Below are positions 37,350-55,526 of a stretch of 64,000 nucleotides of DNA, one piece after another (position 1 is the stretch's first letter; every line of letters starts with the position of its first letter). The notes below the pieces were generated by a model that searched no databases, was not told where the DNA came from, and saw only the letters and a program-made list of their open reading frames with translations. Source of the stretch: Candidatus Cloacimonadales bacterium (GTDB taxonomy: Bacteria > Cloacimonadota > Cloacimonadia > Cloacimonadales > JAIOQZ01); the NCBI GenBank assembly GCA_963674825.1, contig OY771587.1, forward strand, positions 2,464,001 to 2,528,000. The letters are read 5' to 3'. A program made the translations under genes and the position numbers.

Positions 37350-37429
37350 GAAACCAACTCCTTGAAAAGTTAATTCTATTATCTTATTTTCATGCGCGAG
37401 AAGTCATGGAGAAATAGTAGCTATCTAAA

Positions 37430-39297
37430 TTACTTCTTCTGTTTCACTTTGTCCCGGTAACCGCAGCTGATCAGCCCATTCGTGATATTTTCTTTCGCTT
37501 TCTGGAGATCATCAAGATAGCCATTCACCTTTTCGAATTCGTCAAGGATTTCCCGGTTGGGGTTGCCGTGGCTGAGCCCAAGCTGGCGCAACGCGTCGAT
37601 ACCCCTTTTAAGGCCCGAAATCGCGGTCATCATGTTACGGCATTCCTGGGCAACGAACTGACAACCAACCTCCTTCTCGATTAAGAGTGAGGCCTGGTGC
37701 AGATGTTCGTGGGCGATATCCAGTTCCTCTAAACATTTATCCACGTAATATTTGAGGTTCTTCCAGTTGGTGTCGTAGTTCAGGTTGTTCTTGTCGTCGC
37801 GAATGTACTCAGAATGGATGAGGGCGAAGTCTTGGTTATCGCTAAAAAGGTTCAGCTGATAAATGGCCTTGTTGAAATAAGCATAAATCGGATCGTATAA
37901 CTCGACTGCGTTATCGAGGATAGATGGTGCGACGCCGTTTCTCAGCATCTTCCCGTTAACAATCTCGTAAAGCGAGAGGTCCCTTCGTAGGAGTAAATTT
38001 CCCCTGAGTAGGGCAGGTCTGAGTTGAGGATACCCTTGAACCAGAAACCATCCGCCCACAGGTAATCCATCACGTTGTGGTCAACTGCGCCTGTCGGGTA
38101 TATGCCGAATGTGCTGTCGAATTTGAAATCTTCAGGGTGAAGAGGGCTGAATCCGATGCGGGTGATTTTGTCGGCATCGTAATTGAAGGTAGCTCCGATC
38201 GACATATGGTGATGCTTATCTGGGTCTTTTTCCGGTCCGCCGATAAAAAAGTAGGATGATTTGGCGCGGATGTAGTTAGGCCCGTAGCGTGCTTCCAGTT
38301 CATCGTATGTCATCTGTTCTCCGAAACCGAAGGCTTTCAGGATAGATTCATTCGTTACTTTGATGCCGATAGATTTGATGATGGTGTCGTAGTTGCCTGT
38401 CTCGATGACGACCGACTGGTCTTTCGATTTTACGTACTCGTCGTCCTTGGTGAAGCCGTATTTTTCCTGAATCACCTTCCAGTCGTTGCTGCAATAGTCC
38501 TTTTTGTTGAATAGGTAAAGCATGCTTTTTGTCTTGCTACCGAAGTACGGTTCCCAGATATCGGGAAGTGGCTCTTCGACGACCGGTTTCGATTGCGGGG
38601 GCTTCGTCGCGGCATTCAGGCTGTTGTTTTGCTGGCTGGTCTGAGCGATTCCTCCACGTGCTTTTGCCATGACGTCTTTGATCGACTGACGTTGGTCGGT
38701 GACCATATATTGCACGTAATCATCGGCGTCCCCCCACCATGTGTTCAGAGGGAATTTATTGAAGTCGCCGGAAATGGCAATATAGTGGATAACGTATTTA
38801 CCATCTTCGCGATATTGATATAGTAGCTTCACTTTCGCATCCAGTTCACTTCCCTTTGGGTAGAACACCATTTTTGAAGCTTCTGGATTTTCTTCCGTAG
38901 CGTTATCTTTGTATTGCCAGATATCCCGAAGTGAAGCGTTATTATTATAGGCTTCGAGAAAATCCTGAAAATGCGATGGCAGGCCGTAAAATGATGTCAG
39001 CTCAGAGAAAAATTGTTCGGATTGACTATCTTTATAATGTGCTATCTCAGCCCTGCGGAAGCCTTCATTGAGCAACAGGCTGATCGATACCATGTAATCG
39101 CCTTTGTAGATGGTTTCAGACGAGGAGTTCAAGAACTTATCAAGTGTGAAGCCGGTATTTGCAAGATAATATAGGACAAGCGGATCGTCGGCGGGTTTAC
39201 CGATCAGGAGGTGCAAATTTGGCGACGCGGGATTGAAATCGGTGGCAGCGATGGATAGCGCAAGGCACAAGAATAGAAGCGATAGCAAGGTTTTCAT
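37430..39297 (-). pseudogene. Probably one exported hypothetical gene split by a frameshift near 37975
   Basis: ORFs 37942-39297 (signal peptide) and 37430-38059 overlap in different frames; removing one CT from ACCTCTCG fuses them as ...YEGTS-LYEIVNGK... Confidence 0.5.
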
Positions 39298-40784: not shown

Positions 40785-41186
40785 ATGGGACAGCAACAGA
40801 TACTTCTTATCGTTATCGGGGTAATCCTGATTGCCGTAGCGGTTGGCGTGGGAGCGCAGCTATTCCGCGATCAGACACTCGATGCGAACCGTGACGATCT
40901 GCGTGCTGATCTCGTGTGGCTTGCCGAAAAAGCCTACAAATATCGCATGATGACATCTGTAATGGGTGGTGGAAGCGGCTCCTATAACAATCTAGTAGAA
41001 GATGACCTTGGGATCGCAGATGCGCTCGATAATGATCACGGTACTTTCGAATTAGTCTCCGTCGATGCTGATGAAGTGGTTCTGCAGGCGACCGGCAAAA
41101 TTGGGGAGACCCCGTGGATCCTCCAGTGTGTGATGGATGGCAGCGGTAATAAAACGATCACGGTTGTTCAAGACGCAGCGTTCTGA
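40785..41186 (+). CDS. Pilin-like protein (MGQQQ family), paralog 1
   Basis: MGQQQILLIVIGVILIAVAVGVG: very short leader plus hydrophobic helix, then a small acidic domain. Confidence 0.65.
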   Translation: MGQQQILLIVIGVILIAVAVGVGAQLFRDQTLDANRDDLRADLVWLAEKAYKYRMMTSVMGGGSGSYNNLVEDDLGIADALDNDHGTFELVSVDADEVVLQATGKIGETPWILQCVMDGSGNKTITVVQDAAF

Positions 41187-41404: not shown

Positions 41405-41806
41405 ATGGGACAACAACAAATTCTGCTCATCGTGCTTAGCGTTATCCTCGTCGGTGTCGCTGTAGCAGTCGGTATTACCATGTTCAGAGACCATGCTCTT
41501 AACTCGAACAAGGATGCGATCATCGCTGACCTTACCAACCTTTCCGCAAAGGTTTACAAGTTCAGAATCACCCCGACCGGCATGGACGGTGGTGGCGGAT
41601 CATACGCTGACCTCGAAGATGGCGACCTCGGTACTGCCGAAGCGCTTGACAACGACAACGCGACCTATGAAATTATCTCCGCAGACGCTGATGAAGTTGT
41701 TCTTCAGGCGACCGGTACTCAGGGTGCTACTCCCTGGATTATCCAGTGCACAATCGACGCAAGCGGAAACAACACATTCACGACGACACAGCAGGCAGCT
41801 TATTAA
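41405..41806 (+). CDS. Pilin-like protein (MGQQQ family), paralog 2
   Basis: Same 133-aa length as paralog 1, with shared GGGGSY, DADEVVLQATG and TPWI motifs; AGGAG RBS. Confidence 0.7.
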   Translation: MGQQQILLIVLSVILVGVAVAVGITMFRDHALNSNKDAIIADLTNLSAKVYKFRITPTGMDGGGGSYADLEDGDLGTAEALDNDNATYEIISADADEVVLQATGTQGATPWIIQCTIDASGNNTFTTTQQAAY

Positions 41807-41826: not shown

Positions 41827-41859
41827 AGCGGGGACTGATTGCAGTCCCCGCTTTTTTTT
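41827..41859 (+). terminator. Intrinsic terminator
   Basis: AGCGGGGACTG-ATTG-CAGTCCCCGCT followed by a T-run. Confidence 0.9.
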
Positions 41860-42185: not shown

Positions 42186-42214
42186 TTGACAACTAATTGG
42201 GTTTTCCGTATAGT
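42186..42214 (+). promoter_or_regulatory. Near-consensus sigma70 promoter of the virion-gene operon
   Basis: TTGACA-17 nt-TATAGT. Confidence 0.75.
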
Positions 42215-42360
42215 GTTCACGAATATCAAGTGAGTGATCCCGGTGCCATACACCGTAAAAAATGAAGCGTTACAACTTACGATCCGATGAGGATCAACAC
42301 ATCCAAACAAAATCAAACAATTCCAAGCTGACAGAACAGCGACACAAAATGGAGGGAACA

Positions 42361-42927
42361 ATGTCATTACAGGAATTATTCGAGAAGTATTCCGTGGATA
42401 ATCAAGAGCTCATAACCGAAATGCAGGCATTCATCGATCAAGCGCTGACAGACAAAGGTGAGAACCATATCCCGAAATCCCGTCTGGATGAAGTGATCGC
42501 GCAGCGCAACGAGCTTCGTGAGGAACTTCAAATGAAAGAGCGGGAGCTCAATGGTTACGTTAACAGGCTGGGGCAGTTCGAACAGATCGATATCCAGTCG
42601 CTTCAGGAAGAGAAAGCGAAGCTTCAAGCTGTAGTGGACGAAATCCGCCGTAAAGAATGGGAACAGTACAGCCGATTCCTCGATGTTCCAGAAAACCACC
42701 CGCACTATGACAGGATGCTGCGTATTCGCGATGATTTCAAGTTCGGAACCGATACTGAACCGCTCACAGGAGAGGATATCCACCACAATCTGCAGGCAAT
42801 CAAGCCCTATCTCAAAGCAGGATACTTCACGAATGGACACGACTTCGACAACACCCGTCCAGTCCAGGGGATCAAGCCCCGCAAGCGGACGGATCTAACC
42901 GACATGTTCAAGGCATTTGGAGGGTAA
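42361..42927 (+). CDS. Phage capsid scaffolding protein
   Basis: IPKSRLDEVIAQRNE motif plus coiled coil; immediately before the capsid gene. Start ATG 42361 follows a GGAGG RBS. Confidence 0.7.
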   Translation: MSLQELFEKYSVDNQELITEMQAFIDQALTDKGENHIPKSRLDEVIAQRNELREELQMKERELNGYVNRLGQFEQIDIQSLQEEKAKLQAVVDEIRRKEWEQYSRFLDVPENHPHYDRMLRIRDDFKFGTDTEPLTGEDIHHNLQAIKPYLKAGYFTNGHDFDNTRPVQGIKPRKRTDLTDMFKAFGG

Positions 42928-43887
42928 ATGGCAAGTGCAACACTCATGAAGCTGGCTGCTGCGTATAACGTACCAAACCAGACAGCGATCATCGATTCGC
43001 TCATTCGCGAATCCGGAATTCTGGAAACCATGCCGTTCATCAAGGCGACCCACGGCATATACCACAAGTACAAACTCAAGCAGGAGCTCCCGGGCGGAGG
43101 ATTCCGCAGCGTGAATGGCTCCATAATCCCGCACACTACCGAAGACGTGGTGCTTCAGGAAGATCTCAAGATACTCACCGACATCCAGCAGGAAGACAAA
43201 GCGATCTGTGAGAGCTACCCTGGTGGAGTCGAAAAATACTTCGCTGACGAACTTCCTGCATTCGTAGAGGGACTCGGGCAAACTGCCGCACGCCAACTCG
43301 TATACGGCACCGACTCGACTTTCGGTGACGAAGAGGGCTTCAAGGGCCTCCGTCAGCATGCGGTTAAGAACGGCAACACCATCGACGCCACCGGTACATC
43401 GGGCAACAGAACCACCATCCTGGCAGTTCGCTGGAAAGCTGGAAGCTGCTGCGGTCTGTTCAATGAAAACGCCTTCTCGGATGGCAACCTGATCACCGTA
43501 CGTCCGCTTAACAACGGCAACCCGGTAATGGTTGTGGTCAATACAGCTACCGGCGCAGTCAAGCCTGTCTATCAGGCACTCTACGAAGCGTATATGGGAC
43601 TCCTGTGCGCGACCAGCGACAATGTCGCAGCATACGTCTCCATTCAGGACGCTACAGGCAAGAAGCCGACTGCGGGTAACATGGACAAGCTGATAGACAT
43701 GGTTCGCGGAAGCGTTAGCGATACCTTCATCTACTGCAACCGCACCGGTCGCAGACTGCTTTGGGAACTCAAGGAAAGCAAGATGCAGGTTTCCAGCGCC
43801 GACACAGACTACAACCGCCTGATCGAACGCTGGAACGGAATCCCGGTCGTTCTCGAAGAAAACATCTCATCCACCGAAACCATTTAG
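42928..43887 (+). CDS. Major capsid protein, BPP-1 Bbp17/epsilon15 gp7-like
   Basis: IIDSL..ESGILETMPF, LPGGGFRSVNG, DKAI, FVEGLGQ...LVYG...FKGL, FIYCNRT and WNGIPV..ENISSTE match the pattern I recall for this family. Confidence 0.8.
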   Translation: MASATLMKLAAAYNVPNQTAIIDSLIRESGILETMPFIKATHGIYHKYKLKQELPGGGFRSVNGSIIPHTTEDVVLQEDLKILTDIQQEDKAICESYPGGVEKYFADELPAFVEGLGQTAARQLVYGTDSTFGDEEGFKGLRQHAVKNGNTIDATGTSGNRTTILAVRWKAGSCCGLFNENAFSDGNLITVRPLNNGNPVMVVVNTATGAVKPVYQALYEAYMGLLCATSDNVAAYVSIQDATGKKPTAGNMDKLIDMVRGSVSDTFIYCNRTGRRLLWELKESKMQVSSADTDYNRLIERWNGIPVVLEENISSTETI

Positions 43888-43896
43888 GAGTAAACC

Positions 43897-44352
43897 ATGA
43901 GCAAATACTACGGCTATCAGGTAGATGAAAACATGATCCTTTCGGATGCTCAGGCGGTATTCGACGGGACGGGAATGGATTCAAGCAACATCCGCTACGC
44001 AGGCAACAGCGGCGGTTTGGTGGAAATTCGCGTTTATGCGAACACCGCGATCACGATCGCTACAGACGAGATCCTCAAAATCGAACTCGAGTGCTACTCG
44101 TCTCAGACCGCTGCCAGCGCGGCGCCACCGTTCAAAAACAGCGCCAGCGGCTGGGTCGATGACGCCCATTTCTATATGCTGTATAAAGATGCCAGCGATG
44201 ACGGGCTGTCGTTCAGCGCAGGTGACCTCATCACCGCAATGGTGATTCCCGAAGGTCTGCTGCGGGATCGACCTTACGTGCAGCTCAAGTACGCGACCAC
44301 CACCAGCGACTCATCTCAGAAAGTCGACGCGTTCCTGCACGTTCTCGCGTAG
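43897..44352 (+). CDS. Capsid cement/decoration protein, Bbp16-like
   Basis: VDENMILSDAQAV...SSNI N-terminus, YVQLKY near the C-terminus, beta-rich; directly after the capsid gene. Confidence 0.65.
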   Translation: MSKYYGYQVDENMILSDAQAVFDGTGMDSSNIRYAGNSGGLVEIRVYANTAITIATDEILKIELECYSSQTAASAAPPFKNSASGWVDDAHFYMLYKDASDDGLSFSAGDLITAMVIPEGLLRDRPYVQLKYATTTSDSSQKVDAFLHVLA

Positions 44353-44359
44353 CAAATCC

Positions 44360-44381
44360 GGGGAGGGGGAAACCTCTCCCC
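44360..44381 (+). terminator. GAAA-tetraloop hairpin after the capsid/cement genes (partial terminator or mRNA stabiliser)
   Basis: GGGGAGGGG-GAAA-CCTCTCCCC with only a weak U-tract. Confidence 0.6.
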
Positions 44382-44406
44382 ATATCTTGATAAAAGGAGA
44401 CATATA

Positions 44407-45144
44407 ATGGCTTGGGCAAATGCTGTGCTTTCAACACCAAATTCAATCGCGCGGATCGACGCTGAGGTGAATATTCTCGCCGGTGGGACCGTTCATCAGT
44501 GCTATAAAGGCGACGGCGCTAGCAGCATCGATTTCCCGGACGAAGTTGCCCGTATCGAGTGGTACGATCCCGATGGCAACGTGACCAGCGTCGACTTGTC
44601 AGTAACCTGGATCGTTCCCGAAGACACATACGTCTTTCGCATCGTGGGCTACGGGATTGACGACACCAGAATTAGCGAATACAATTGCGACGAAGGCGTA
44701 GAATTGGTTGCACTGGATGTCAGCGGAAACGGCTATCATGCAGAGCTTGATTCCACCTCGCTTCACGCGACCTACACAGTTCCTGCCAACTGGCTCGATA
44801 AGATCGCTATGGCGAAGAAGATCATCGGAAGGAGACTGGAAAATCAGCTCTCATCGCAGGGGTATAACGTCGATGAAAGCTCGGGAAAGGCACTACTCGA
44901 TATCGTGGCCAACCCCGAATTGTTCGACATCTGCAGCGACTACCTTACCCTTCACCTGATTTACACCGACCTGGCAAATGCGATGGGACGTGAGATGTAT
45001 TGGACCAAAGCTGAATTCTACCATCGTGTCTTCAAAGACCACTTCGATGTCGCTTCAAAAGCGGTTAATCTGGATACAACGCTCGACGGCGCGGTAGACC
45101 GCTATCGCGCCAATGTTTTCTCGACCACCCGGCACAAACGATAG
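44407..45144 (+). CDS. Putative head-tail adaptor/neck protein
   Basis: Position after the head genes; helical C-terminal half (YLTLHLIY..L...YWTKAEFY). Assignment rests mainly on synteny. Confidence 0.5.
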   Translation: MAWANAVLSTPNSIARIDAEVNILAGGTVHQCYKGDGASSIDFPDEVARIEWYDPDGNVTSVDLSVTWIVPEDTYVFRIVGYGIDDTRISEYNCDEGVELVALDVSGNGYHAELDSTSLHATYTVPANWLDKIAMAKKIIGRRLENQLSSQGYNVDESSGKALLDIVANPELFDICSDYLTLHLIYTDLANAMGREMYWTKAEFYHRVFKDHFDVASKAVNLDTTLDGAVDRYRANVFSTTRHKR

Positions 45145-45153
45145 GACAACACT

Positions 45154-45606
45154 ATGCACGTATATCAAAATGAAGTACTCAACTGGATGAAAGATACCCT
45201 GAAAAGCGGCGACCAATTCGCATACGTGGGCGATTTCCCGGATGACATCGATCGCTTCGGCAGAAACCTCCCGGCTATCCTGGTTCAAGACGGCGACCAG
45301 CCGGAGTTTGTCATGATGTCAGGCGGACAGATTCGCTACACCTACGAAGTCAACGTCTGGCTTTACCACAAACCGGGGCAGAATCGCGTCATCAACATGA
45401 ATGTTCTGAGCGACCTGGTGATCGAGAAGATCCTCGGTGCGGCTGGCATCGCAGACTATGTTTTCAACCTTGAAACCGTGTCAGTCGAGAAAGGCGAAGC
45501 CCATGGAGAATCGACTGACTACCTGGCCCCGGGAATCTATAACAACCTTACCATTCGGAAGATCGGGTTCAGAATGCAAATCCTCGACACCCGAACCGAT
45601 GACTGA
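45154..45606 (+). CDS. Putative tail terminator/completion protein
   Basis: 150 aa, acidic, LPAILV motif, immediately before the tail tube gene. Confidence 0.5.
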   Translation: MHVYQNEVLNWMKDTLKSGDQFAYVGDFPDDIDRFGRNLPAILVQDGDQPEFVMMSGGQIRYTYEVNVWLYHKPGQNRVINMNVLSDLVIEKILGAAGIADYVFNLETVSVEKGEAHGESTDYLAPGIYNNLTIRKIGFRMQILDTRTDD

Positions 45607-45620
45607 CAACTGGAGGACGT

Positions 45621-46577
45621 ATGTGCGCATATCGATATGGATATAAATATCTGGTGACACTGTTCAAGGAGCAGGACTCAGGCACGGGCAGCGGCTACGG
45701 CAACTATGCCGGTGACTACAGCTCAGCCGACAGAATTCTGGCCAGCGCAATCGAGATGAAACCGACACGTGAAGCGATCACCGTTCGCGCCAAGACCGAC
45801 ACCCTGGAGCCACGAGGTTCCGAGATGCTGGCTGGTCGCAAAGGCGGTACAGTTACACTGCGTGGGGAATTGACCTATCTTCACGATATCATGTTGCAGG
45901 GGCTCTTCTCAAAGAACACCTCGCCTTATCAGGTTCAGAATGTGAAGAATCCCTATTCCTATGAAATCCATCAGTTTTTCACCGACGACAAGAAGGGGAA
46001 TGTCGCTACCGGCTGTGTGCTGGAGAGTCTCAACATCTCCGGCGAGAGCAGCGGTGCGGTGAACTTCGAGGCTGTCTTCCGCGCTCGTACCATTGAAACG
46101 GAAGTTGATCTGGCAACCGGCGATTATGCTGCTTACGGAATTATTGCAACGCCTTCCGCGAAGACATTCCTGGTCGGTGATATTCAGTCGATTAACCTGT
46201 TCGACTCCTCATACAGTTCGTTTAACACGTTCAGCCTGGCACTTTCGAATCGTTTTGTGAACGACAACGCATTGTACCAGAATTCCTTCGTTAAGCAACG
46301 TGAGTTGCTCGAGGCGTTCAGCGGCGAAGCGACCTTTGATACCAACTACGATTCCACGAATGGCTGGTTTGAAGACGAACTGATCTCTCCGGATGTGGCG
46401 GTGGGCAATATCGATTTCACCATGTCCGACGGAACGCATCACTGGGCGGTGGAGACCAACGGTAAGATCACCGGCGTCAATCCAGCAGATCCCGAGCGGC
46501 AGATCTTCAACATGTCGGCAACGGTACAATTGATGGCGGATAACACCAATCCGTCAGTCAAGATCACCATCTCGTGA
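45621..46577 (+). CDS. Putative tail tube (major tail) protein, non-contractile
   Basis: Beta-rich; GRKGGTVTLRGEL, ATGCVLESLNISG and FSLALSN patterns; precedes chaperone and TMP; no sheath gene. Confidence 0.65.
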   Translation: MCAYRYGYKYLVTLFKEQDSGTGSGYGNYAGDYSSADRILASAIEMKPTREAITVRAKTDTLEPRGSEMLAGRKGGTVTLRGELTYLHDIMLQGLFSKNTSPYQVQNVKNPYSYEIHQFFTDDKKGNVATGCVLESLNISGESSGAVNFEAVFRARTIETEVDLATGDYAAYGIIATPSAKTFLVGDIQSINLFDSSYSSFNTFSLALSNRFVNDNALYQNSFVKQRELLEAFSGEATFDTNYDSTNGWFEDELISPDVAVGNIDFTMSDGTHHWAVETNGKITGVNPADPERQIFNMSATVQLMADNTNPSVKITIS

Positions 46578-46584
46578 GGACACG

Positions 46585-46986
46585 ATGAGCGATAAAATCA
46601 AGAACTGCTTCGAAGATCATGGCGCGGCGTTGACCCGTGAGGTCTTTTTCGACGGTGAGCGAATCGCAACAATTCGCGCGCTGAGGCCACTCGACCGTGA
46701 CGCGTTGCTTCCGTTCATGGGTAAGCTCAGCTTCAACGGTGAAGAACCTGTCTACGAGGGCATTCAGCCCGAAGCGCTACGCCTGGCAAAGATCGTTCTG
46801 GCGTTGGGCGGAGAGCTCGACGGAAGAAGACACCAGGTGGATCGTGAAGGATGGATATTCGAGCGATCCGTTACACTGGAGAGCGTAAATCTGCTTCGGG
46901 AAGACATCCGGGATGCGCTCTGGCATGAGATTGTCGCGATGGAAGAAGATTTCAGGCAGAACCGCGAGGCGATCCGAAAAAACTGA
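46585..46986 (+). CDS. Tail assembly chaperone (lambda gpG-like)
   Basis: Between tube and TMP; ends in slippery heptamer A-AAA-AAC followed by TGA. Confidence 0.7.
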   Translation: MSDKIKNCFEDHGAALTREVFFDGERIATIRALRPLDRDALLPFMGKLSFNGEEPVYEGIQPEALRLAKIVLALGGELDGRRHQVDREGWIFERSVTLESVNLLREDIRDALWHEIVAMEEDFRQNREAIRKN

Positions 46987-47330
46987 CACGCGCCCTCCGG
47001 TTGATGATCTATTCGGGTGATCGCTGGGAGGGCATGATTCAAGGGTATGCGGGTGAGAGAACATTCTGCGGTTATTGCCGGATGCATCGGACGTGCAGAA
47101 GGGAGCGCGCCGGAAATCCGTTTCCGAAGGTTTTACCGGGAGTGCGGATGGTGCTGGATTACCTGATTGAAAACGCCCGTGGCGTGGTGCACTATCCCTG
47201 GGATGGCGATCACCGCCGGCAACCACAGTGGTTTATGGAACTCTACGCACTCGCGGAGAGATTGCAGCGAGAAACGATGACAGAGAAGCTTCAACGGGGG
47301 CAAAATGAAACGAAACACAACATGGGATAA
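46983..47330 (+). CDS. -1 frameshift extension of the chaperone (gpT-like)
   Basis: The -1 frame is open from the slippery site (LTRALRLMIYSGDRW...) and contains CGYC and QPQWF; no evident RBS of its own. Confidence 0.65.
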   Translation: MTRALRLMIYSGDRWEGMIQGYAGERTFCGYCRMHRTCRRERAGNPFPKVLPGVRMVLDYLIENARGVVHYPWDGDHRRQPQWFMELYALAERLQRETMTEKLQRGQNETKHNMG

Positions 47331-48390
47331 CCAGACGTTCACCGATGCGAATCGTAACGTCAGTACGCTCAATGGCGCGCTGGGCAATACCGATCAGCTT
47401 CTGAAAACCCTTCAGAAGACAATCGATTCGGCGCGAAGCTCGATGGATTCCTTCGGTAGCTCGTCGCGAAAAATGCTGCCCGGGAAATCGGCGATGGCGA
47501 CCTTGCGCGAAAACCACCAGCAAAATCTGGATTGGATGCACGAAGAAGCCAGAACCCGCGAAGAACTCGATTTGAGCGCGATGGAGAGCCAGAAACAGCA
47601 ACAGCAGGTGATGCTTGATACCTTGCGTAACTCGCTGGATCTGAGCTCCGATATGCAGTATTCGGAGTATCTGAAGTTGCAGGAAATGGCGATCGAGCAC
47701 CAGAGCGCCAGCACCGCCATCATGGAATATTACACCAAGGAGCGCAACGACATTCGCCAGAAGGAGCTCAAGCGAGAGTTGGCACGTCAGAAAGAGCTAC
47801 TTTCCGGTACAGCGGATATGTTTGGCGATATGGCCGACATCGCCCGGGCATACGGGCGAGACGGATTCGAGGCGTGGAAACGGCTCTCGATGGTACAAGC
47901 GGTTTTGGATGGCTTGCAAGCCGTGCAGTCCGCATACGCCTGGGGAATGAAATACGGTGGCGCGGCAGCTCCGTTCGTGGCAGCAGCTGCGGCTGCTGTG
48001 GCGACAGCCAAGACAGCGGCAAACGTCGCGGAGATAGAGGCCCAAACATACGCTTATGGTGGCTATGTGTCAGGCCCCGGTAGCGGGACATCCGATTCGA
48101 TTCCGGCTTTCTTGAGCAACGGTGAGTACGTGGTTAACGCGCAAGCGGCAAGCGGGAATCTCGATCTGCTGCACGCGATCAACCACGGCAGCACTGGCAG
48201 CCTCGGAGAAAAGCTCGACCGGATATCATCACAGCTTCGTGCGCTCAACATCAACCTGATCAAGAAAGAATTCAGCGTCCGTACAGGCAGCGGTCGCGAC
48301 AGCGAAACCATTGTCGCGCAAATCGATGCGGTCAGGCAACGACTCACCCTTGGAGGCTACGATGGCTCAGGTGAAAATCTGGCATTATAG
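47305..48390 (+). CDS. Short tail tape measure protein
   Basis: Helical and Ala-rich; C-terminal AYGGYVSGPGSGTSDSIPAFLSNGEYVVNA motif typical of TMPs. Confidence 0.8.
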   Translation: MKRNTTWDNQTFTDANRNVSTLNGALGNTDQLLKTLQKTIDSARSSMDSFGSSSRKMLPGKSAMATLRENHQQNLDWMHEEARTREELDLSAMESQKQQQQVMLDTLRNSLDLSSDMQYSEYLKLQEMAIEHQSASTAIMEYYTKERNDIRQKELKRELARQKELLSGTADMFGDMADIARAYGRDGFEAWKRLSMVQAVLDGLQAVQSAYAWGMKYGGAAAPFVAAAAAAVATAKTAANVAEIEAQTYAYGGYVSGPGSGTSDSIPAFLSNGEYVVNAQAASGNLDLLHAINHGSTGSLGEKLDRISSQLRALNINLIKKEFSVRTGSGRDSETIVAQIDAVRQRLTLGGYDGSGENLAL

Positions 48391-50134
48391 AGACCACCAC
48401 AACGGCGCGAAGTTTGATGGCAATGTCTATGTCAATAGCAACGTCGCGCTTGATGCAGCCGATCTCATCACGCCGGTTCGGTGCCGATTTCGCTTTGCCG
48501 AGTTCGGGATGGGTGTCAGCGTGAAAAGCGTGTGGGGTGTTGGCAACGGAGACGATGCCTGGTCGCTGAAAGTATATTCGACGGGTGGAAAGTATCATCT
48601 GCGTATCCGCTTTCTGGATACGGATTACGATTATACGGATTTGGACCTTAACACCGACGAGATCTACAATGTGAGTATCTATCTGATTGCGACACCGGCA
48701 ATCGTTCTGGATGTACGCGACCGGTACAATAATCCTGTTTACAGCGAAACGCGTGCATCTACATCGTCAGGTACGCTGACAACATCGAATTTGTTTATTG
48801 GCGCGACCAGCGACAGCTCCGGCAATCCGCAGCAGAAGTTCACGGGTACACTGTTCGATTTCTGGTACTACAAGTCTTCAACGCACCGTAAGTTGGTGTT
48901 TTACAAGAACTACGGCGGAGTTGGCGACGCCACGATCAAGGATTTCTTTGGAAACAGGAACGCGGCTGTCTGTGGGACAATTCCAATCGATTTCTGGTCT
49001 GCAAAGACGGATATCTCCGGGGGTATCACCGATATCTCGCCGCTCAAGCACGAGACGGACAGCTATCGCACGCCGGTTCTCACGGATATGTCGTTTACCT
49101 GGTACGGCGAGCAGGACATCCGAATCAACGACACCATCGGAATCGAGGATCCAGTCTCCGGTAAGCAGAACTGGTTTTACCGTGTCTATCGAACCGAGGA
49201 GCAGGATCAAGGATTGATGCGGATCTACTGTGAGAGCATCTTCACCGCGCTCGATCAGGTTCGTTCTGATAGTTTTCTGAACAGCACCAATACATTCACC
49301 ACCACGCGTATCGACTGGTGGAGCAACTACTCTCCGGAATTCTTTACGGGCTCGAATTACGATTCAACAGAATACTATTACGATGCTGGAGTGAGCTCAC
49401 GAAGATGGATTACTCCGATCTTTATCTTCAAGAGCGTGCTGCATTTTCTGCAATACGACAACCTCCTTGCCGTTGACGTAACACAGATTGCAAACACGCT
49501 GTCGGACTTCAGCGATTCCGCATACACGCTCTACTACAAGTGGTTTGCTATTAGCCACTACTCTGTGCGCTTCGCAGGACGGGCAAACAAGGACGACAAT
49601 GACAGCGCCGATATGTCGACGCTACTGCGGGAACTGCTTCTCGTGCTACGGCTGACGTTCTTCATCAATGATGCTGTGGTGACCTATCGTAAGGTGAGTT
49701 ATGGAACAACCGCAATCGCAAACGACGAAAGTTTCGATTACCGGCAGAACATCGAGACGCAGAGAAAGTTCTTCCAGATCAATCAGACTCGGCTGGCAAC
49801 AGGGACGGATTATTGGGATAGCTGGACATCGGACGACTCTGAGGAAATCTCAGTCAGCAATATCAGTAGCTCCTACAAGGTACGGAATTCCGTCATCGAT
49901 GTGAACCTGACAGATCACTTCATCATCCAACGTCACGGTAGCACCAGTAATGCGATTGCGGAGATTGTACCATCGTTTTTAGAGCAGTTGGCCAATACGA
50001 TGGATTGTTCGTTTCGACGCGATATCGCTTACCGCAACGTGAAGACAGGCCTCACTGTAGATATGAACGAAACCTACGTCAGAAAAATCGACGACCTTGT
50101 GAACCAGACATCAGAAATCAAGCAGGAGGTTTGA
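48362..50134 (+). CDS. Tail tip/hub protein with N-terminal LamG/ConA-like domain
   Basis: Start ATG 48362 after GGAGG; NLFIGA...KFTGTLFDFWYY resembles the LamG C-terminal strand motif; follows the TMP. Confidence 0.5.
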   Translation: MAQVKIWHYRDHHNGAKFDGNVYVNSNVALDAADLITPVRCRFRFAEFGMGVSVKSVWGVGNGDDAWSLKVYSTGGKYHLRIRFLDTDYDYTDLDLNTDEIYNVSIYLIATPAIVLDVRDRYNNPVYSETRASTSSGTLTTSNLFIGATSDSSGNPQQKFTGTLFDFWYYKSSTHRKLVFYKNYGGVGDATIKDFFGNRNAAVCGTIPIDFWSAKTDISGGITDISPLKHETDSYRTPVLTDMSFTWYGEQDIRINDTIGIEDPVSGKQNWFYRVYRTEEQDQGLMRIYCESIFTALDQVRSDSFLNSTNTFTTTRIDWWSNYSPEFFTGSNYDSTEYYYDAGVSSRRWITPIFIFKSVLHFLQYDNLLAVDVTQIANTLSDFSDSAYTLYYKWFAISHYSVRFAGRANKDDNDSADMSTLLRELLLVLRLTFFINDAVVTYRKVSYGTTAIANDESFDYRQNIETQRKFFQINQTRLATGTDYWDSWTSDDSEEISVSNISSSYKVRNSVIDVNLTDHFIIQRHGSTSNAIAEIVPSFLEQLANTMDCSFRRDIAYRNVKTGLTVDMNETYVRKIDDLVNQTSEIKQEV

Positions 50135-50168
50135 CGGATGAAACGCTATCCGGGAGAAGGAGGATTCT

Positions 50169-50618
50169 ATGGCATATTGGGGTAACGAAGCTCCCGTCAT
50201 ATACTACGGGACAGCGTATGGTTCCAGCTGGGACCTCGCTGAAGAAGACTGCAACTTCGAATATTCATGGTTGAAAGACCGGGTATTTCACACATCGGTG
50301 ATCACGGGTAAGGTCTCGGTTTATGAGAAGGCATCCAGTGCTAATTACGGCAGGATGCAGGCCGAGATCGTCATCTACAACCTCGATCGCGACTCAATGA
50401 ACATCTTTAAAGCATTACGGGATCAGGAGACGCTCAAGCTGTGTATCCACGGGGACGTAACCGGTACCAACGGATGGGATGTAATCTTCGTTGTGGAAAA
50501 ATACCAATCGTTCGCAACAGGTGAAAGTGGCCTTCCGTATCCACAATACGACAGCGTCTATCTCAAGTTGATCAGTCAGGACTATATAGATCTGAAAAAT
50601 ATCGCGTTAACCACTTGA
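50169..50618 (+). CDS. Putative distal tail/minor tail protein
   Basis: Strong AGGAGG RBS; size and position in the tail module only. Confidence 0.4.
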   Translation: MAYWGNEAPVIYYGTAYGSSWDLAEEDCNFEYSWLKDRVFHTSVITGKVSVYEKASSANYGRMQAEIVIYNLDRDSMNIFKALRDQETLKLCIHGDVTGTNGWDVIFVVEKYQSFATGESGLPYPQYDSVYLKLISQDYIDLKNIALTT

Positions 50619-50647
50619 TATCAATCATAAAAAAAGCAGGAGGGAAC

Positions 50648-50902
50648 ATGGACCGAATTGAAAAGAGTATGCGAATGGTGCCGGAGGATTTCGACATCAT
50701 CAGCGATACTTCCACGCATACCGGAGACTGGTATGCAATCCAGAGCTATAACGCATCGTTTCCGTCTTCCGGTAACACCGTGGGCGGAGCGGACAAGGAT
50801 CTCTCGTCGCTTAATGGCGAGCTTCCTTACGGCGACATCACCTACGGTCACTTCACGCAGATCAGACTCAGCGGCGGGAAGATCAAAGCCTACAAGGGTT
50901 GA
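50648..50902 (+). CDS. Small beta-sandwich virion protein (spike-base-like)
   Basis: 84 aa from ATG 50648 (AGGAGG RBS); C-terminal PYGDITYGHFTQIRLSGGKIKAY. Confidence 0.4.
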   Translation: MDRIEKSMRMVPEDFDIISDTSTHTGDWYAIQSYNASFPSSGNTVGGADKDLSSLNGELPYGDITYGHFTQIRLSGGKIKAYKG

Positions 50903-50905
50903 GCC

Positions 50906-51805
50906 ATGCGTAACGTAGCAATCAACATCCTCACCGATTCTCCGCCCGAGCCGATGGTTGTCATCAAGGCATTCATCACGAATTTCGCCAGCCAGACAGT
51001 GACGATAACCATTCGTGGTATCAGCGGGGCATCATCGAGGATCGACTGGGGCGACGGATGCGCAACCGAATGCAGCCACAACGATCTGGATATCGAATAT
51101 ACGCATACCTATGCCGACAACGGTACATTCACGATCAATATCACAGGTAAACTAAATCTTATCAAGCGCTTCTACGCGTACAACCAGAGCTATATCGGCG
51201 TCAAGATCGAGACGCTCCGCTTTATGAAATCGGTTGATAATCTGTATTGCCATTACACGGCCAGCTACGGCGACATTTCGGTAGGACTGGCTCCCCTGAA
51301 ATCGCTCAAGATTCTCTATCTGAAGCAGACGAATCCTGATAATATCTACGGCGATCTCTCGGTGTTCAATGGTAAGACGTCGACCCTTATTATCGATCTC
51401 AGCGGTAATATCAGGCTGACCGGATCGCTCTCAAACTTCTCGGGACTGGCCGGCATGACGAAGTTGTCTTGCTCGGGAGTGAAGGTCGATGGCGAAATAT
51501 CGGATCTTGCCGATAAACCGCTCGAACTTCTGAGGCTGGACAATACGGGCATTACCGGCTACACCTCAACCGCTCTCTCCTGGAATGTGATCCAGGCGAA
51601 TTTCGACAACCTGTACGGTCTGACAACTCACGAAATCTCGCAGATACTTGTGGATGTGGAAGCTATCGGTAACAGCGGCGGTTCGCTCGATTTCGGTGGG
51701 TGCGGAACCGGATATTCCGACCTCGACTTGGATGGACAGACTGCACACGATATCCTTCTTTCCAGAAGCTGGGATATTACTCTGGATTCTGCGGAGGTAT
51801 TATGA
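50906..51805 (+). CDS. Fibre/receptor-binding protein with PKD-like and leucine-rich-repeat domains
   Basis: IDWGDG...YTHTYADNGTFTI followed by LxxLxL and GDLS/GEISDL repeats. Confidence 0.6.
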   Translation: MRNVAINILTDSPPEPMVVIKAFITNFASQTVTITIRGISGASSRIDWGDGCATECSHNDLDIEYTHTYADNGTFTINITGKLNLIKRFYAYNQSYIGVKIETLRFMKSVDNLYCHYTASYGDISVGLAPLKSLKILYLKQTNPDNIYGDLSVFNGKTSTLIIDLSGNIRLTGSLSNFSGLAGMTKLSCSGVKVDGEISDLADKPLELLRLDNTGITGYTSTALSWNVIQANFDNLYGLTTHEISQILVDVEAIGNSGGSLDFGGCGTGYSDLDLDGQTAHDILLSRSWDITLDSAEVL

Positions 51806-51996
51806 CTGAACTGACACTGCGCTACAGGCTGATCTGGGAAGGGTCAACCAATGTGGTCCGCTGTTGCAAAGAGTTCAATAACGGAACCGTCACTCGCACC
51901 AATCATCCGTGTTTCGAGACCGATACTGCGTCGGAGATCGCAAGCTGGGTCGAACAGGAGAACCTGATCGTACCTGATACGATACAACTTCCATAG
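51802..51996 (+). CDS. Small hypothetical protein (possible fibre chaperone)
   Basis: ATGA overlap with the upstream stop; GGAGG RBS; 64 aa. Confidence 0.5.
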   Translation: MTELTLRYRLIWEGSTNVVRCCKEFNNGTVTRTNHPCFETDTASEIASWVEQENLIVPDTIQLP

Positions 51997-52017
51997 GGTG
52001 TTCAACAGGAGGGCAAT

Positions 52018-52194
52018 ATGGATTGGAAAGTCATACTAAGACATGTAATGAACGTGCTGCCGGTCAAGGTGATCGTCGATGCGTTTATTGACTGGCTCGA
52101 TGAAATGGCGGAAAAGACCGAAAACAAACTCGACGACCACTCAGTTGAAGTCCTGCAACTGATTCTCTACAACGCGTTCGGATGGGCTCGCTGA
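52018..52194 (+). CDS. 58-aa amphipathic protein in the holin position (absent from the ORF track)
   Basis: AGGAGG RBS; MDWKVILRHVMNVLPVKVIVDAFIDWLDEMAEKTENKLDDHSVEVLQLILYNAFGWAR. Confidence 0.6.
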   Translation: MDWKVILRHVMNVLPVKVIVDAFIDWLDEMAEKTENKLDDHSVEVLQLILYNAFGWAR

Positions 52195-52619
52195 TGTCGT
52201 CAAACAGACATTCTCCCCTTTCATCTGAAAGGGGAGTCTTTTTATCGGAAGAAGGCTGGTGTGCGATCAACTTCTTCGTGCGGGAGGAGTTTCTATGTCG
52301 GTGTTGCGGTGAGGAAAGGATTGCTCGGGAACTTGTCTTGAAGCTCGATGATGCACGGCGTATTGCCGGGATTCCCATGATCGTCAATTCGGGATATCGT
52401 TGCCCGAAGCACAACCGGGAAGTCGACGGCTTCGCCACGTCGAGTCATCTCAGGGGCTATGCGGCCGATATATCAACGCCGGATCATCAAACGCGGTTCA
52501 AGATCGTCCGTGCGCTAGTTCTTGCTGGTTTCCAGCGCATTATCATCTACCGGGACAAACGGTTTGTACACGTCGATGTCGATCCCGAAAAACCACAGAA
52601 TATTATGCCGATCGTCTAA
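52194..52619 (+). CDS. Peptidase M15-family endolysin
   Basis: EFLCRCCG, SGYRCPKHN, SSHLRGYAADI (SxHxxGxAxD) and FVHVD motifs; start uncertain (TGATG overlap at 52194). Confidence 0.85.
   Translation: MSSNRHSPLSSERGVFLSEEGWCAINFFVREEFLCRCCGEERIARELVLKLDDARRIAGIPMIVNSGYRCPKHNREVDGFATSSHLRGYAADISTPDHQTRFKIVRALVLAGFQRIIIYRDKRFVHVDVDPEKPQNIMPIV
52213..52243 (+). terminator. Terminator-like hairpin inside the 5' end of the endolysin ORF
   Basis: CTCCCCTTTC-ATCT-GAAAGGGGAG followed by TCTTTTT. Confidence 0.7.
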
Positions 52620-53428
52620 TTGACAGGCAGAAATCCGGTATCTTTAACGATTGCCTGGCCACGCTCGGAAAGGACGAAGCGGACGAAATCGCCGATATGA
52701 CCTCGCGGTTTTCCGTTGGTGTACATGTATAGCTTTCTGGAAAGGGCGTATTCTCCTGAAGATATGGTTTGACTTGAAGGCTCAACTTTTTCTATCGAGA
52801 GAGCTTTCAGGTGGCTTTGCAGGAAACCGATGCCGATATAACCGATAGCGGATTCGGTCATAGCCACAGCATCCGCGACCGATTGATTGCCCTGAACCAG
52901 GATGGCTGTAAGGGTCAGTTCTTCGTCTTTCAGCACGATGTGATTGAACACCTCAAAAGTGCCAGACGAGGGGTCGCGCGAGATAACCAGGATGGGTTTA
53001 TCTGCTCCACCAACTTCCTTCCACGAGGTGATCTTCCCTGTGTAGATATCCTTGAGCTGCTGGAGAGATAAGGTGTTTACTTTGTTGTTGGGATGCACGA
53101 CTACTGCGACACCATCCAGCGCGACCACGGTTCCGTGGAGGTCGATCCCTTTGCTTCTGGCTTTATCGATCTCTATTTTCTTTGCTGCTCGGGAGGCGTT
53201 CCCAACATCCGTTGTTCCATCGATAATGGATGATATTCCCACGCTCGAGCCGGTGGAAGCAAGTTCGATCTCCACGCCTGGATTCTCATCCTCGAAAATC
53301 TGAGCGCACTTTTCGGTAATGGGAAAGACAGTTGTTGAGCCGGTTATATTAATCAGATCGGCTGCAACAAGAGTCGAACCGAGTATAGCGAGTATCGCGA
53401 GACAGAATAACTTCTGATACATGATCAC
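52616..53428 (-). CDS. pstS: Phosphate ABC transporter substrate-binding protein
   Basis: GSTTVFP, TGSSVGI, ASR, SRDPSSGTFE, AIGYIG and LSRKLYMYT motifs. Confidence 0.9.
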   Translation of the reverse strand: MIMYQKLFCLAILAILGSTLVAADLINITGSTTVFPITEKCAQIFEDENPGVEIELASTGSSVGISSIIDGTTDVGNASRAAKKIEIDKARSKGIDLHGTVVALDGVAVVVHPNNKVNTLSLQQLKDIYTGKITSWKEVGGADKPILVISRDPSSGTFEVFNHIVLKDEELTLTAILVQGNQSVADAVAMTESAIGYIGIGFLQSHLKALSIEKVEPSSQTISSGEYALSRKLYMYTNGKPRGHIGDFVRFVLSERGQAIVKDTGFLPVN

Positions 53429-53507
53429 CTCCGGGCCACTATTTGTATGACCTTTACGGGCAGGATGTTATTTGAGGATAATGATTTGAATAAAGACGCA
53501 TGAACCA

Positions 53508-55526
53508 TCAGACGCTTTCGTCTTCTTCCTCGAATGGATCCGCGTTTGCGCAGCCGAGTTTGACCATCGACGTTCCTTCCGTGTAGTCGCCGTATTGCAC
53601 CCGGTCGAGCTTTTCAATGTGCTCCATGATCCCCATAATTCGTTCAAGCGAGGTTTGAATACGGAAAACGAATCGAAGTTGATCGTCGTCTGCGTCACGT
53701 TTTTCGATATTGATACGCAGCATGTCCAGGTTCCCCTGAATGATCATCAATGGCTGATTGATTTCGTGATTCATGGTTACCGCCATTGCGGACATCGATT
53801 TGAGCCGCTCGAATTCGATAAGCTCTTGCTGCGCTTTTTCGAGCTGTCCGTAAGCGTCGGTGAGCGCTTCATGCTGTTCGCTGATCTTCATGTGTAGGCT
53901 TCGTTCGCGCCGTAACCGCGCGATAATATACCAAAGAAAAACGATCGCGCCGATCACCAGCAGTGCCATGGAGATCATCACGACCCGCTGATTGCGCGAT
54001 TTCAAGTTTTCTAGCTCCAACTGTGTTTCGTAGTAGAATTTATCGTGTTCAGCCTGTAAACGCTGCGCCGCCAGGTTGTTTTCCAGTTTCTCGATCTCTT
54101 TTTCCTTCTGAAAGCTCTCGAAAAGGATTTCCATCTCGGCCAGCTTCTGGTGTGAAAGATCGTCGTAGAGCTTATCCTGGAGGTTCATCGCCTGACGGTA
54201 ATGGGTGATAGCACTGTGAATGTTGCCCTGCTTCTCTTTCAATTCGGCGATGCTCTTCTCGATCTGAAGCTGATATTCCTTGTTGCCGCCACCTTCACGC
54301 AATACCACTGACGCCTCGCTAAGTGCAGAGATGGCTTCTGTGCTGTTTCCGGCCATGGCCTGAACGTCGCTGAGGTCGATCAGAAGTGCGGTGAGGAGTC
54401 GTGTGAGGCCTTTATCTTTCGCGATCTCAATCGATTTCTGGCTGTAGCGGATTGCGTCCTGAAATTCTCCTGATTCTGCCAGCGAAAGTCCGATCTTGCT
54501 ATTAGAAAGCGCCATACCTTCAAAGTTCTCGACCTTTGTGTAGGTCGAAAGCGCTTTTTTGAAGTACGTCAGGGCTGTATTGTCCTGCTTAAGATCGTTA
54601 TAGAGTAGGCCGAGATTCATGTAGTTGTCGCCCACATTCGCCCAGTTTTGCAGGCTGATATTCAGTATCTGCGCGTTGGTCATGTATTCGATTGCTTTAG
54701 GGATCTCGCCCAACTTCCGGTAGATAGTGGCCACGCGATCATAGACCACAGCCAGCATATCCTTTCTGTTAGCTTTGGAAAAACTGTCGATCGCCTCGAA
54801 GTACGCTGCCAGCGCTAAATCGAATTCTCCTTTACGCTGATGCGCGTTACCGACATTGATTGCCAGTTCCGCCGAAAGCAGTGGATCGTCGAGTTCCTGC
54901 GAGAGGATGTACGCTTTATCGTAGTATTCCAAGCTGTTGATGATCATCCCCTGGCGGTCGAAATATTGTCCCAACTGCCGGTACGCGCGAATCATAAGCG
55001 TGCGATCGGAGAGGGCGTTGATCTCCAGCACGGCTTCCATTGCCTCGCGAGAAGCAGCACGCATCAGGTTCTGCTGTTCGAAGAAAGTGGCGATTTCAAG
55101 GTGCAGGACAGCGATGAAATGCGAGGGGAGGGTCAATTTGGCATGCTTGATGGCATTTCGATAGAGCTTCTGGGCTTCTTCCTGATCACCGGCTTTGTTT
55201 TCCAACCGCGCGAGTTCCCATTCCGCGAAGGCCTCGGCAGAGTGCATATCGTGCCTTCGGCTGAGTTCCAGCGCTTTGCGGATATAGCGCGTAACCGCTT
55301 TGCTGTCGATGCCGGCGACATTGCTGCTGAGAAGCAAGTAGCTGACTCTGCGCTGTACTGGCAAAGGGCTGTCCTCGTTGATTGCGTCGAGTAGTTCAGA
55401 TTTCCAGCTGACCGGATCGCTCCGAACCGAATCGGCAAGTTCAAGATAGTCGTCAAGCCAGGCTCCGAAGAGCAGATTTCCAATCAAAAAGAGAAGACCG
55501 ATAAGCGACAGCCTCTTTATGATCAT
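53508..55526 (-). CDS. Membrane TPR sensor with a HisKA domain and no HATPase domain
   Basis: Signal peptide from ATG 55526, TPR repeats, TM helix, AMAVTMNHEINQPL; the ORF ends about 80 aa later. Confidence 0.75.
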   Translation of the reverse strand: MIIKRLSLIGLLFLIGNLLFGAWLDDYLELADSVRSDPVSWKSELLDAINEDSPLPVQRRVSYLLLSSNVAGIDSKAVTRYIRKALELSRRHDMHSAEAFAEWELARLENKAGDQEEAQKLYRNAIKHAKLTLPSHFIAVLHLEIATFFEQQNLMRAASREAMEAVLEINALSDRTLMIRAYRQLGQYFDRQGMIINSLEYYDKAYILSQELDDPLLSAELAINVGNAHQRKGEFDLALAAYFEAIDSFSKANRKDMLAVVYDRVATIYRKLGEIPKAIEYMTNAQILNISLQNWANVGDNYMNLGLLYNDLKQDNTALTYFKKALSTYTKVENFEGMALSNSKIGLSLAESGEFQDAIRYSQKSIEIAKDKGLTRLLTALLIDLSDVQAMAGNSTEAISALSEASVVLREGGGNKEYQLQIEKSIAELKEKQGNIHSAITHYRQAMNLQDKLYDDLSHQKLAEMEILFESFQKEKEIEKLENNLAAQRLQAEHDKFYYETQLELENLKSRNQRVVMISMALLVIGAIVFLWYIIARLRRERSLHMKISEQHEALTDAYGQLEKAQQELIEFERLKSMSAMAVTMNHEINQPLMIIQGNLDMLRINIEKRDADDDQLRFVFRIQTSLERIMGIMEHIEKLDRVQYGDYTEGTSMVKLGCANADPFEEEDESV

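Follow-up and report, generated by a model that had tools for sequence, protein, structure and literature searches.

The subject of this report is a cluster of phage-type genes in a 64,000-nucleotide stretch of DNA (the window: positions 2,464,001 to 2,528,000 of contig OY771587.1, assembly GCA_963674825.1) from a Candidatus Cloacimonadales bacterium. Sixteen open reading frames (ORFs), all on the plus strand and most of them abutting or overlapping, run from 42262 to 52619. We think that they probably form the head-tail-lysis half of a domesticated, siphovirus-derived and vertically inherited particle system resembling the gene transfer agents (GTAs), that is, a viriform. The other half appears to be a small terminase (TerS), the only large terminase (TerL) recognisable in the genome and an SPP1-type portal protein, encoded together at C1:188055-191274. 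For the narrower claim that the system functions as a gene transfer agent, we would put the chances at about even. A preliminary description of the window had left three readings of the cluster: a multi-locus GTA with its packaging genes elsewhere, a DNA-free device of capsid and tail, and a module that parasitises a helper phage. The first is now favoured by a packaging module at a second locus, by synteny, by divergence that parallels that of the host and by low ratios of nonsynonymous to synonymous substitution (dN/dS). The DNA-free device fits poorly with a conserved terminase and portal, and the helper-phage parasite with a cluster that is not mobile and carries no integrase or replication genes.

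The bacteria concerned are known only as metagenome-assembled genomes. The genome that holds the window, G000, is a single contig of 3.89 Mb (C1), rated 99.6% complete. Plain positions below are those of the window, and positions prefixed C1 are those of this contig.

A packaging module at a second locus

The cluster had been described as having no portal, terminase, integrase or replication genes, and Pfam scans of 60 ORFs across the window agree, recovering no family of these four kinds. The further suggestion that orphan terminase and portal genes might sit elsewhere in the genome was borne out by an intact TerS-TerL-portal module, 2.3 Mb from the cluster in contig coordinates. A search of the whole genome with five Pfam TerL families gave one match in total, to PF03237 at C1:188561-189169. 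The TerL found there (411 amino acids, aa; PF03237 and PF17289; phrog_2, 1.1e-39) carries Walker A (GGGKT) and Walker B-like (FDE) motifs, by the general definitions of these motifs. TerS lies upstream of it (phrog_309, 8.4e-15) and the 457-aa portal downstream (phrog_533, 6.6e-7), and the orthologue of this portal in G007, a genome of the related genus g2, shares 53% identity with it and scores 28.7 bits with Pfam SPP1_portal, above the cut-off of 25.5. On one side of the trio lie dnaX and a glycosyltransferase gene, and its other neighbours are a gene of a multi-copy host family and one for a MORN-repeat protein. A predicted promoter, TTGACA-17-TACATT, precedes it and is kept in the relatives G001 and G003 despite different upstream genes.

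The two loci are joined by a viral relative. An IMG/VR phage (behind locus L042) of 38,308 bp, with direct terminal repeats and rated 100% complete by CheckV, carries TerS, TerL and portal genes directly upstream of homologues of g01-g06 and g08, in canonical order. Identities to the bacterial proteins are 33% for TerL, 28% for the portal (E 7e-56), 30% for the scaffold, 44% for the capsid, 38% for g03, 36% for g04, 26% for g05, 33% for the tube and 27% for g08. Because the phage carries both modules contiguously, the two bacterial loci can be read as halves of one ancestral phage morphogenesis module, and on this homology both modules derive from one siphovirus lineage. The phage is contiguous, and has an 899-aa tape measure, a DNA methyltransferase and three extra head or neck genes, whereas the element is chromosomal, with relocated packaging genes, a tape measure of 361 aa (317 aa in G007) and host-like composition. 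The capsids of the epsilon15 and BPP-1 type bear a more distant likeness to that of the element.

Vertical descent within one family

We followed the capsid gene through 203 genomes of the order Cloacimonadales, G000 included. It is single-copy in G000 and, G000 not counted, occurs in all seven other genomes of the family f1, in the one genome of family f5 (54% identity), in one of 98 genomes of family f3 (36% identity) and in none of 96 genomes from ten other families. Capsid identity to G000 declines in step with taxonomy, from 95, 95 and 89% in the same genus through 78 and 77% in genera g3 and g4 and 65% in both g2 genomes to 54% in f5. Host DnaX gives 82 and 81% in the same genus, 57 and 53% in g3 and g4, 51 and 51% in g2 and 53% in f5, and a host NuoD-like protein gives 90 and 85% in the same genus, 72 and 72% in g2 and 66% in f5, with no NuoD-like sequence found in g3 or g4. 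Congruence of capsid and host histories had been named beforehand as a check, and it is seen here on a small sample: the identity ranks run parallel to those of the two host proteins, the trees of capsid and DnaX agree in their genus clades, and family monophyly is not rejected by an approximately unbiased (AU) test (p 0.217).

Synteny in relatives, another of the checks named, is found as well, the context being kept within the genus and the capsid gene being present in every sampled family genome. G002 and G003 keep the order amt, p133a, p133b, g01-g16, and G001 and G003 keep the pstS and TPR kinase genes at the other flank. G001 and G003 also keep TerS-TerL-portal-u285-MORN apart from the cluster, the distance to the capsid gene being 382 kb in G001 and the two lying on different contigs in G003, and in G006, of genus g4, the packaging trio is likewise separate from the head-tail cluster. 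Genus g2 (G004, locus L028; G007, L027:4863-17322) has a single 12.5-kb locus with cellular flanks, in which scaffold and capsid lead on to the tape measure, g10 and g11, and are followed by four small genes, TerL and the portal. The TerL of g2 falls in phrog_979, against phrog_2 in G000, and the portal is orthologous, which points to a replaced terminase. A 153-aa and a 143-aa protein of G007 gave no blastp match to the neck proteins of G000 or of the virus.

Additional capsid copies, distant from that of the cluster, lie in G004 (C13:74983-75879, L010; 34% identity) and in G119, a genome of another family (C138:591-1493; 36%), and these are probably ordinary prophages of a related phage lineage.

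Selection, composition and a mobile element in the same genomes

Pairwise NG86 comparisons of G000 genes with those of G001, G002 and G003 gave dN/dS ratios, to be read as rough, of 0.03-0.20 for g01-g12, g15, g16, TerS, TerL and the portal, and of 0.22-0.41 for g13 and g14; flanking host genes range from 0.035 to 0.15. Most genes are thus far below 1, as had been expected of a host-maintained cluster and as purifying selection would give, and reading frames that are intact at a dS of about 1-3 exclude neutral decay. The composition of both loci is host-like. By tetranucleotide distance from the genome (GC 0.496), compared with 300 random G000 windows, the head-tail cluster (GC 0.520) stands at the 68th percentile and the packaging locus (GC 0.531) at the 55th.

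A second phage-like element, unrelated to the first, lies at C1:2871276-2882639 (L068) and is beyond all 300 random windows in composition, with a GC of 0.604. It encodes a PF04860 portal, a 578-aa protease-capsid fusion, an 887-aa tape measure and a paralogue of the M15 peptidase, with a DNA methyltransferase inside the structural genes, and no TerL of its own was recognised by the five Pfam TerL families run over the whole genome. G001 carries 4-5 copies of it at 97-98% identity. Its identities are out of step with taxonomy, at 70% in another family versus 57-59% in two same-genus species. It also leaves truncated copies, a decayed one lying near C1:1011585-1018865 (L067). This second element is truly mobile, and the head-tail and packaging system behaves oppositely on each point compared, so that the same genomes hold a built-in contrast.

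A proposed mechanism and the case against it

Particle production, random packaging, transfer and regulation are inferred here. A host signal would cause both loci to be transcribed. The scaffold and the epsilon15-type capsid protein would build procapsids on the portal, and TerS and TerL would fill these with DNA. The adaptor and the terminator would then join the heads to a short tail, made of the tube protein and the 361-aa tape measure with the help of the G and GT chaperones; a tape measure of this size would predict a tail of about 50 nm. The M15 peptidase would help to lyse the producer cell, and the fast-evolving g13 fibre may bind related cells. Lacking genes for replication and integration, and with its halves far apart in this genus, the element should be unable to spread itself, and whatever DNA its particles carry would then be mostly host DNA.

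Several observations weigh against this account. In the capsid tree G011 and the virus fall inside the family, with weak support (64/90), a placement that may be a long-branch effect. The family is represented by just eight genomes, which are not independent of each other. The dN/dS ratios are rough, with dS saturated at about 1-3 and several pairs giving no estimate. Gene content is uneven as well: G001 is without g12-g14, the genus g2 locus has no recognised endolysin, and G002 has the full head-tail cluster with no TerL or portal found by protein or PF03237 search, in an assembly that is 90% complete and has frameshifted genes such as dnaX. In G005 (81% complete) the capsid cluster is present and no TerL or portal was found. 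Between its portal and tube genes the viral relative encodes a 245-aa protease-like protein, a 157-aa protein and a 149-aa Neck1/tail-completion protein, none of which has a tblastn match in G000 at E <= 1e-3, so the neck of the bacterial particle may be incomplete. The nearest phage packs 38.3 kb, and the 12.5-kb locus of g2 could fit into one such head. If head size is unchanged from the 38-kb phage, the too-small head that is a hallmark of GTAs would be lacking here, and it is the split of the halves in this genus that by itself bars the packaging of both together.

Some of the same evidence can be read otherwise. It is conceivable, though we consider it unlikely, that the particles are PBSX-like killers whose selected role is killing or competing with related strains, or lytic release, and in which DNA is packaged for head completion and not usefully transferred. 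Such a killer would have the same gene content as a GTA-like system. The divergence of g13, which has 44-45% identity in G002 and G003 against 80-95% for the adjacent genes and a dN/dS of 0.22-0.31, is, together with what may be a spare g13-g14 cassette, the pattern expected of strain-specific targeting. Counting against a killer, no immunity or repressor gene was recognised beside either locus, and the sequence holds nothing that separates killing from transfer. We find it quite unlikely, in turn, that the host has exapted only some of the genes, for example those for the capsid or for lysis, while the rest are merely linked and no complete tailed particle is made. The three viral neck or head genes without a counterpart in G000, the missing g12-g14 of G001 and the TerL and portal not found in G002 would fit such a partial exaptation. 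All scorable genes, those of the tail included, nevertheless have a dN/dS of at most 0.41, most of them at most 0.2, eight of eight genomes retain the programmed frameshift site in the tail chaperone gene, and at dS > 1 mere linkage would not have saved the genes from decay.

We give very little credence to a functionless old defective prophage, split by rearrangement and with its decay still pending. The missing integrase, replication and lysogeny genes and the division into two pieces would suit it. Against it stand frames intact across four genera at saturated dS, dN/dS ratios like those of host genes, host-like composition and a capsid gene in all eight family genomes, and genuine decay is visible, in the same genomes, in the truncated copies of the second element. 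Equally improbable is a satellite that depends on a helper, or a module that takes over or disrupts a co-resident phage in the manner of the capsid-forming islands. A possible helper does exist in G000, in the other phage-like element with its own portal and capsid and no recognised TerL. The cluster, however, has no integrase, primase, replication gene or att repeats, it is single-copy, syntenic and taxonomy-following, unlike mobile satellites, and the system encodes a portal and a terminase itself, which share the viral ancestry of its capsid. Two established classes of element were also considered and set aside: a capsid-forming phage satellite resembling the phage-inducible chromosomal islands (PICI-like), as there is no integrase or replication module and the element is neither mobile nor patchy, and a tailocin, as the element retains conserved genes for capsid, scaffold, portal and terminase.

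Relation to known gene transfer agents

The definition of GTAs, in the passages of Kogay et al. 2022 (PMC9662315) that give it, has six features: tailed particles derived from caudoviricetes; packaging of mostly random host DNA; a genome that is fully endogenised, often at several loci; a head too small for the agent's own genome; mostly vertical co-diversification; and delivery of the DNA to other cells (PMC9662315). Three of these can be read from the genes of the Cloacimonadales element. Its proteins are derived from caudoviricetes, the capsid, tape measure, terminator, adaptor, TerS, TerL, portal and endolysin all being recognised and the phage relative being complete; it is endogenised at two loci 2.3 Mb apart, each between host genes and of host-like composition; and it co-diversifies vertically with its hosts, as seen in eight family genomes. 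A functional temperate prophage would look different, as neither locus nor its flanks hold contiguous integrase, att, replication and lysogeny genes, and the single locus of G007 is likewise without them.

The closest architecture is that of BhGTA (VSH-1) of Brachyspira hyodysenteriae (Brachygtaviriformidae), which the same source, in its passages on this agent, describes as a head-tail-lysis cluster with a single identifiable terL that lies outside it and is conserved in the genus (PMC9662315). BhGTA diversifies together with its host, its tail is non-contractile, and its packaging of 7.5 kb and its transfer have been shown experimentally (PMC9662315). A structural cluster with an unlinked terL is common to both, a likeness in architecture. 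They differ in that the Cloacimonadales genes have clear phage homologues, whereas in those passages only the endolysin of BhGTA has one, and in that synteny is kept within the Cloacimonadales genus, whereas none is described there among Brachyspira (PMC9662315). They differ also in that the function of BhGTA is known from experiment and that of the Cloacimonadales system is proposed from its genes. With the RcGTA-type agents of Alphaproteobacteria (Rhodogtaviriformidae), as portrayed in part of that source, the element shares phage derivation, several loci and vertical inheritance (PMC9662315). It differs from them in its capsid, which is of the epsilon15 gp7 type (PF20911 / NF045672), and no match to the HK97-type capsid family PF05065 was found anywhere in G000, which places the element outside Rhodogtaviriformidae. 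RcGTA also has a short tail and is released by lysis, as proposed for the element, and its head-tail cluster itself contains the terminase and portal. PBSX of Bacillus subtilis resembles the element in being chromosomal and non-propagating, and forms tailed particles that carry host DNA. It has one locus, its own repressor and a contractile tail, whereas the Cloacimonadales element is split over two loci, its tail is of siphovirus type and no repressor was recognised.

A full-text literature search turned up no gene transfer agent on record for Cloacimonadota, and a Cloacimonadota pangenome preprint mentions prophages in a COG legend only. More tentatively, and with somewhat less than an even chance of being right, we suggest that the element is an independently domesticated GTA lineage, the first in Cloacimonadota, with an epsilon15-type capsid on a siphovirus tail and possibly heads of a ~38-kb class. 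Its packaging module would have been relocated in genera g1 and g4 and re-joined in g2 behind the tail genes with a non-orthologous TerL, and its fibre cassette would have been swapped between species. So few GTA lineages have been characterised that every independent domestication is a test of which traits they have in common. In the present system the terminase is unlinked, as it is in BhGTA, the tape measure is shortened, the fibre evolves fast and the composition has fully ameliorated to that of the host. One ancestral phage genome can also be seen in three layouts, the canonical one of the virus, a split one in two genera and a permuted one in another, and these are useful for asking how packaging genes uncouple from structural genes. 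If the suggestion is true, heads of the ~38-kb class would lie far above the cargo of known GTAs, and a whole uncultured family of Cloacimonadales would gain a private channel for exchanging large chromosomal segments.

The cluster gene by gene

The preliminary description had assigned roles in virion order to the ORFs (Table 1). Those of the capsid, tape measure, G/GT chaperones, terminator and endolysin have become firm; that of the adaptor is held with moderate confidence and those of the scaffold and tube weakly, and its labels of cement, tip, fibres and holin position are positional. Assignments came from PHROG, NCBIfam and Pfam searches, and from predicted structures made for g04 and g05 only, which were compared by Foldseek and VIA-align; their quality is given in Table 1 as the predicted local distance difference test (pLDDT) and predicted template modelling (pTM) scores.

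Table 1. The head-tail-lysis cluster and its upstream signals, in window positions; dN/dS as ranges over the available pairs
Feature	Position	Strand	Length	Basis	dN/dS
Intrinsic-terminator-like hairpin	41827-41852	+		11-pair stem with 8 GC pairs, then a T run; kept in G002 and G003	
Promoter-like site before g01, TTGACA-17-TATAGT	42186-42214	+		11/12 matches, best in a 13-kb scan	
g01, scaffold-like	42262-42927	+	221 aa	weak: phrog_194 0.004, PF06810 0.0083	0.13-0.19
g02, major capsid protein, epsilon15 gp7 type	42928-43887	+	319 aa	PF20911 GP7 1e-23	0.03-0.05
g03, virion protein	43897-44352	+	151 aa	decoration/cement by position only	0.08-0.09
g04, probable head-to-tail adaptor	44407-45144	+	245 aa	predicted structure, pLDDT 62	
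g05, tail terminator	45154-45606	+	150 aa	model, pLDDT 85.7, pTM 0.83	
g06, probable tail tube	45621-46577	+	318 aa	phrog_290 3.8e-7; PF18906 (Phage_tube_2) 7e-4, under Pfam cut-off	0.04-0.06
g07, tail assembly chaperone G	46585-46986	+		-1 slippery heptamer, AAAAAAC, occupying 46977-46983, immediately ahead of the g07 stop	
g08, T part of G-T frameshift product	46929-47330	+		-1 frame open from 46929 across the g07 stop	
g09, short tape measure	47305-48390	+	361 aa	15 PHROG families, best 2.5e-17	
g10, distal tail/tip candidate	48311-50134	+	607 aa	position; true start may be later	0.09-0.13
g11, conserved tail-end protein	50169-50618	+	149 aa	position	0.03-0.06
g12	50615-50902	+	95 aa	position; present in G002, G003 and G006	
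g13, fibre/receptor-binding candidate	50906-51805	+	299 aa	weak PKD and LRR matches (Pfam)	0.22-0.31
g14, small g13 partner	51802-51996	+	~64 aa	length from an ATG that forms ATGA with the g13 stop	
g15, holin position	52018-52194	+	58 aa	phrog_402 (function unknown) 5.7e-5	0.06-0.11
g16, M15 peptidase endolysin	52182-52619	+	145 aa	PF08291 4.5e-19; phrog_894 1.8e-29	0.16-0.20

Among the head genes, the 30% identity of g01 is to the ORF immediately 5' of the capsid gene in the viral relative. The capsid g02 scores 142 bits against a cut-off of 75 with NCBIfam NF045672 (MCP_gp7_epsi_15), and a search of 5.8 billion proteins at E <= 1e-10 gives its relatives as 20 clusters, named just 'hypothetical protein'. 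No PHROG, Pfam or PDB sequence match was found for g03, which is kept in eight of eight family genomes and the viral relative at 31-96% identity. The top rows of a wide VIA-align search with the g04 model are almost all phage neck or adaptor chains, such as HK97 gp6 and the Mu neck subunit, at a Z of 6-8.8, which is middling and can occur by chance for helical folds, and the model itself has a low pLDDT. Foldseek gave nothing for this model at E <= 0.001 and the ESM Atlas no usable match, and g04 is probably, on its modelled fold, the head-tail adaptor. For g05 the model points firmly to a tail-terminator fold, its Foldseek matches being the siphophage terminator 8gtf_k (9e-6; template modelling scores 0.68/0.72), lambda gpU (1e-5) and T5 p142 (1e-5), with template modelling scores of 0.6-0.7 over these best matches. 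PDB sequence profiles built from the alignments of g03, g04, g05 and g06 returned nothing meaningful at E <= 1.

Among the tail genes, g06 sits between the terminator and the chaperones. The slippery heptamer of g07 is kept in all eight Cloacimonadales genomes checked and in the viral relative, and g08 orthologues within the genus share 65-77% identity. No match to g10 was found with the hidden Markov models of PHROGs and Pfam; its neighbours in the ESM Atlas, which we take as a lead only, are viral proteins of 608-646 aa, some with Laminin_G_3, at a score of 0.97. Orthologues of g11 are kept in G001-G004, G006 and G007 at 41-83% identity, and g12 had no match in the fetched G001 locus. The small g14 is real and shorter than the listed ORF, to judge by its ATGA overlap with g13 and by the recurrence of the g13-g14 pair elsewhere; it has 58% identity in G002, and no match in the fetched G003 or G001 loci. 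The sequence of g15 is not clearly that of a membrane protein.

The recurrence of the pair is at C1:3599430-3600284 on the minus strand, where a truncated g13 paralogue (3599616-3600284; 57% identity over 223 aa) stands with a g14 paralogue (51%). These paralogues (locus L072:7401-8243) adjoin genes for an SNF2 helicase, a DUF6119 protein, a methylase fragment and SIR2_2, and may be a spare or discarded receptor-binding cassette.

Boundaries and flanking genes

By its sequence, the terminator-like hairpin upstream of g01 would close the host gene p133b and mark the left boundary of the element. The conserved block TTTTTGCTTGACAA at the predicted g01 promoter is kept in G001, G002 and G003 and in genus g2 (G007). 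A shared regulon was considered from the TTGACA-type sites at both loci; TTTTTGCTTGACAA occurs twice exactly in the genome and ten times with one mismatch, and the idea was dropped because these occurrences show no link to phage genes. An assembly break near the left edge, which the preliminary description had seen as a risk, is excluded by the uninterrupted C1 contig and by the same amt-p133a-p133b-g01 junction in G002 and G003.

A search for direct repeats around the cluster came back empty, none bracketing it, in keeping with the earlier statement that no att repeats were seen. A tRNA-Arg gene (36658-36734) was rejected as an integration site, as it lies 5.5 kb upstream with amt and other ORFs between. 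There is no integrase near either locus, the three PF00589 matches in G000 lying at 0.316, 1.80 and 2.72 Mb.

Outside the cluster the Pfam scans of the window recognised only cellular genes, among them those for a P-type ATPase, sensor kinases, an Mrp/Mbx-like complex, TsaE, an ammonium transporter (amt), a PstS-like protein and xanthine dehydrogenase-like proteins. No NCBIfam, Pfam or PHROG match was found for u285 or for three ORFs at 36741-39297. The stretch is present in three sequencing runs of one study, none of them on record as RNA or virome.

The 3' end of the cluster is abutted, on the minus strand at 52616-55601, by genes for a PstS-like phosphate-binding protein and a TPR-HisKA protein, the former rightly named beforehand (PF12849, 2.3e-45); the pair keeps this position in G001 and G003 and is missing in G002. 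The upstream neighbours had been called pilin-like, a label that finds no backing: they are two 133-aa ORFs without a Pfam, PHROG or NCBIfam match. These, p133a (40785-41186) and p133b (41405-41806), are paralogues with 59% identity, each with a hydrophobic N-terminus. They lie upstream of the cluster in G002 and G003 and are unmatched in the fetched G001 locus, and a third copy is encoded at C1:3662720-3663118.

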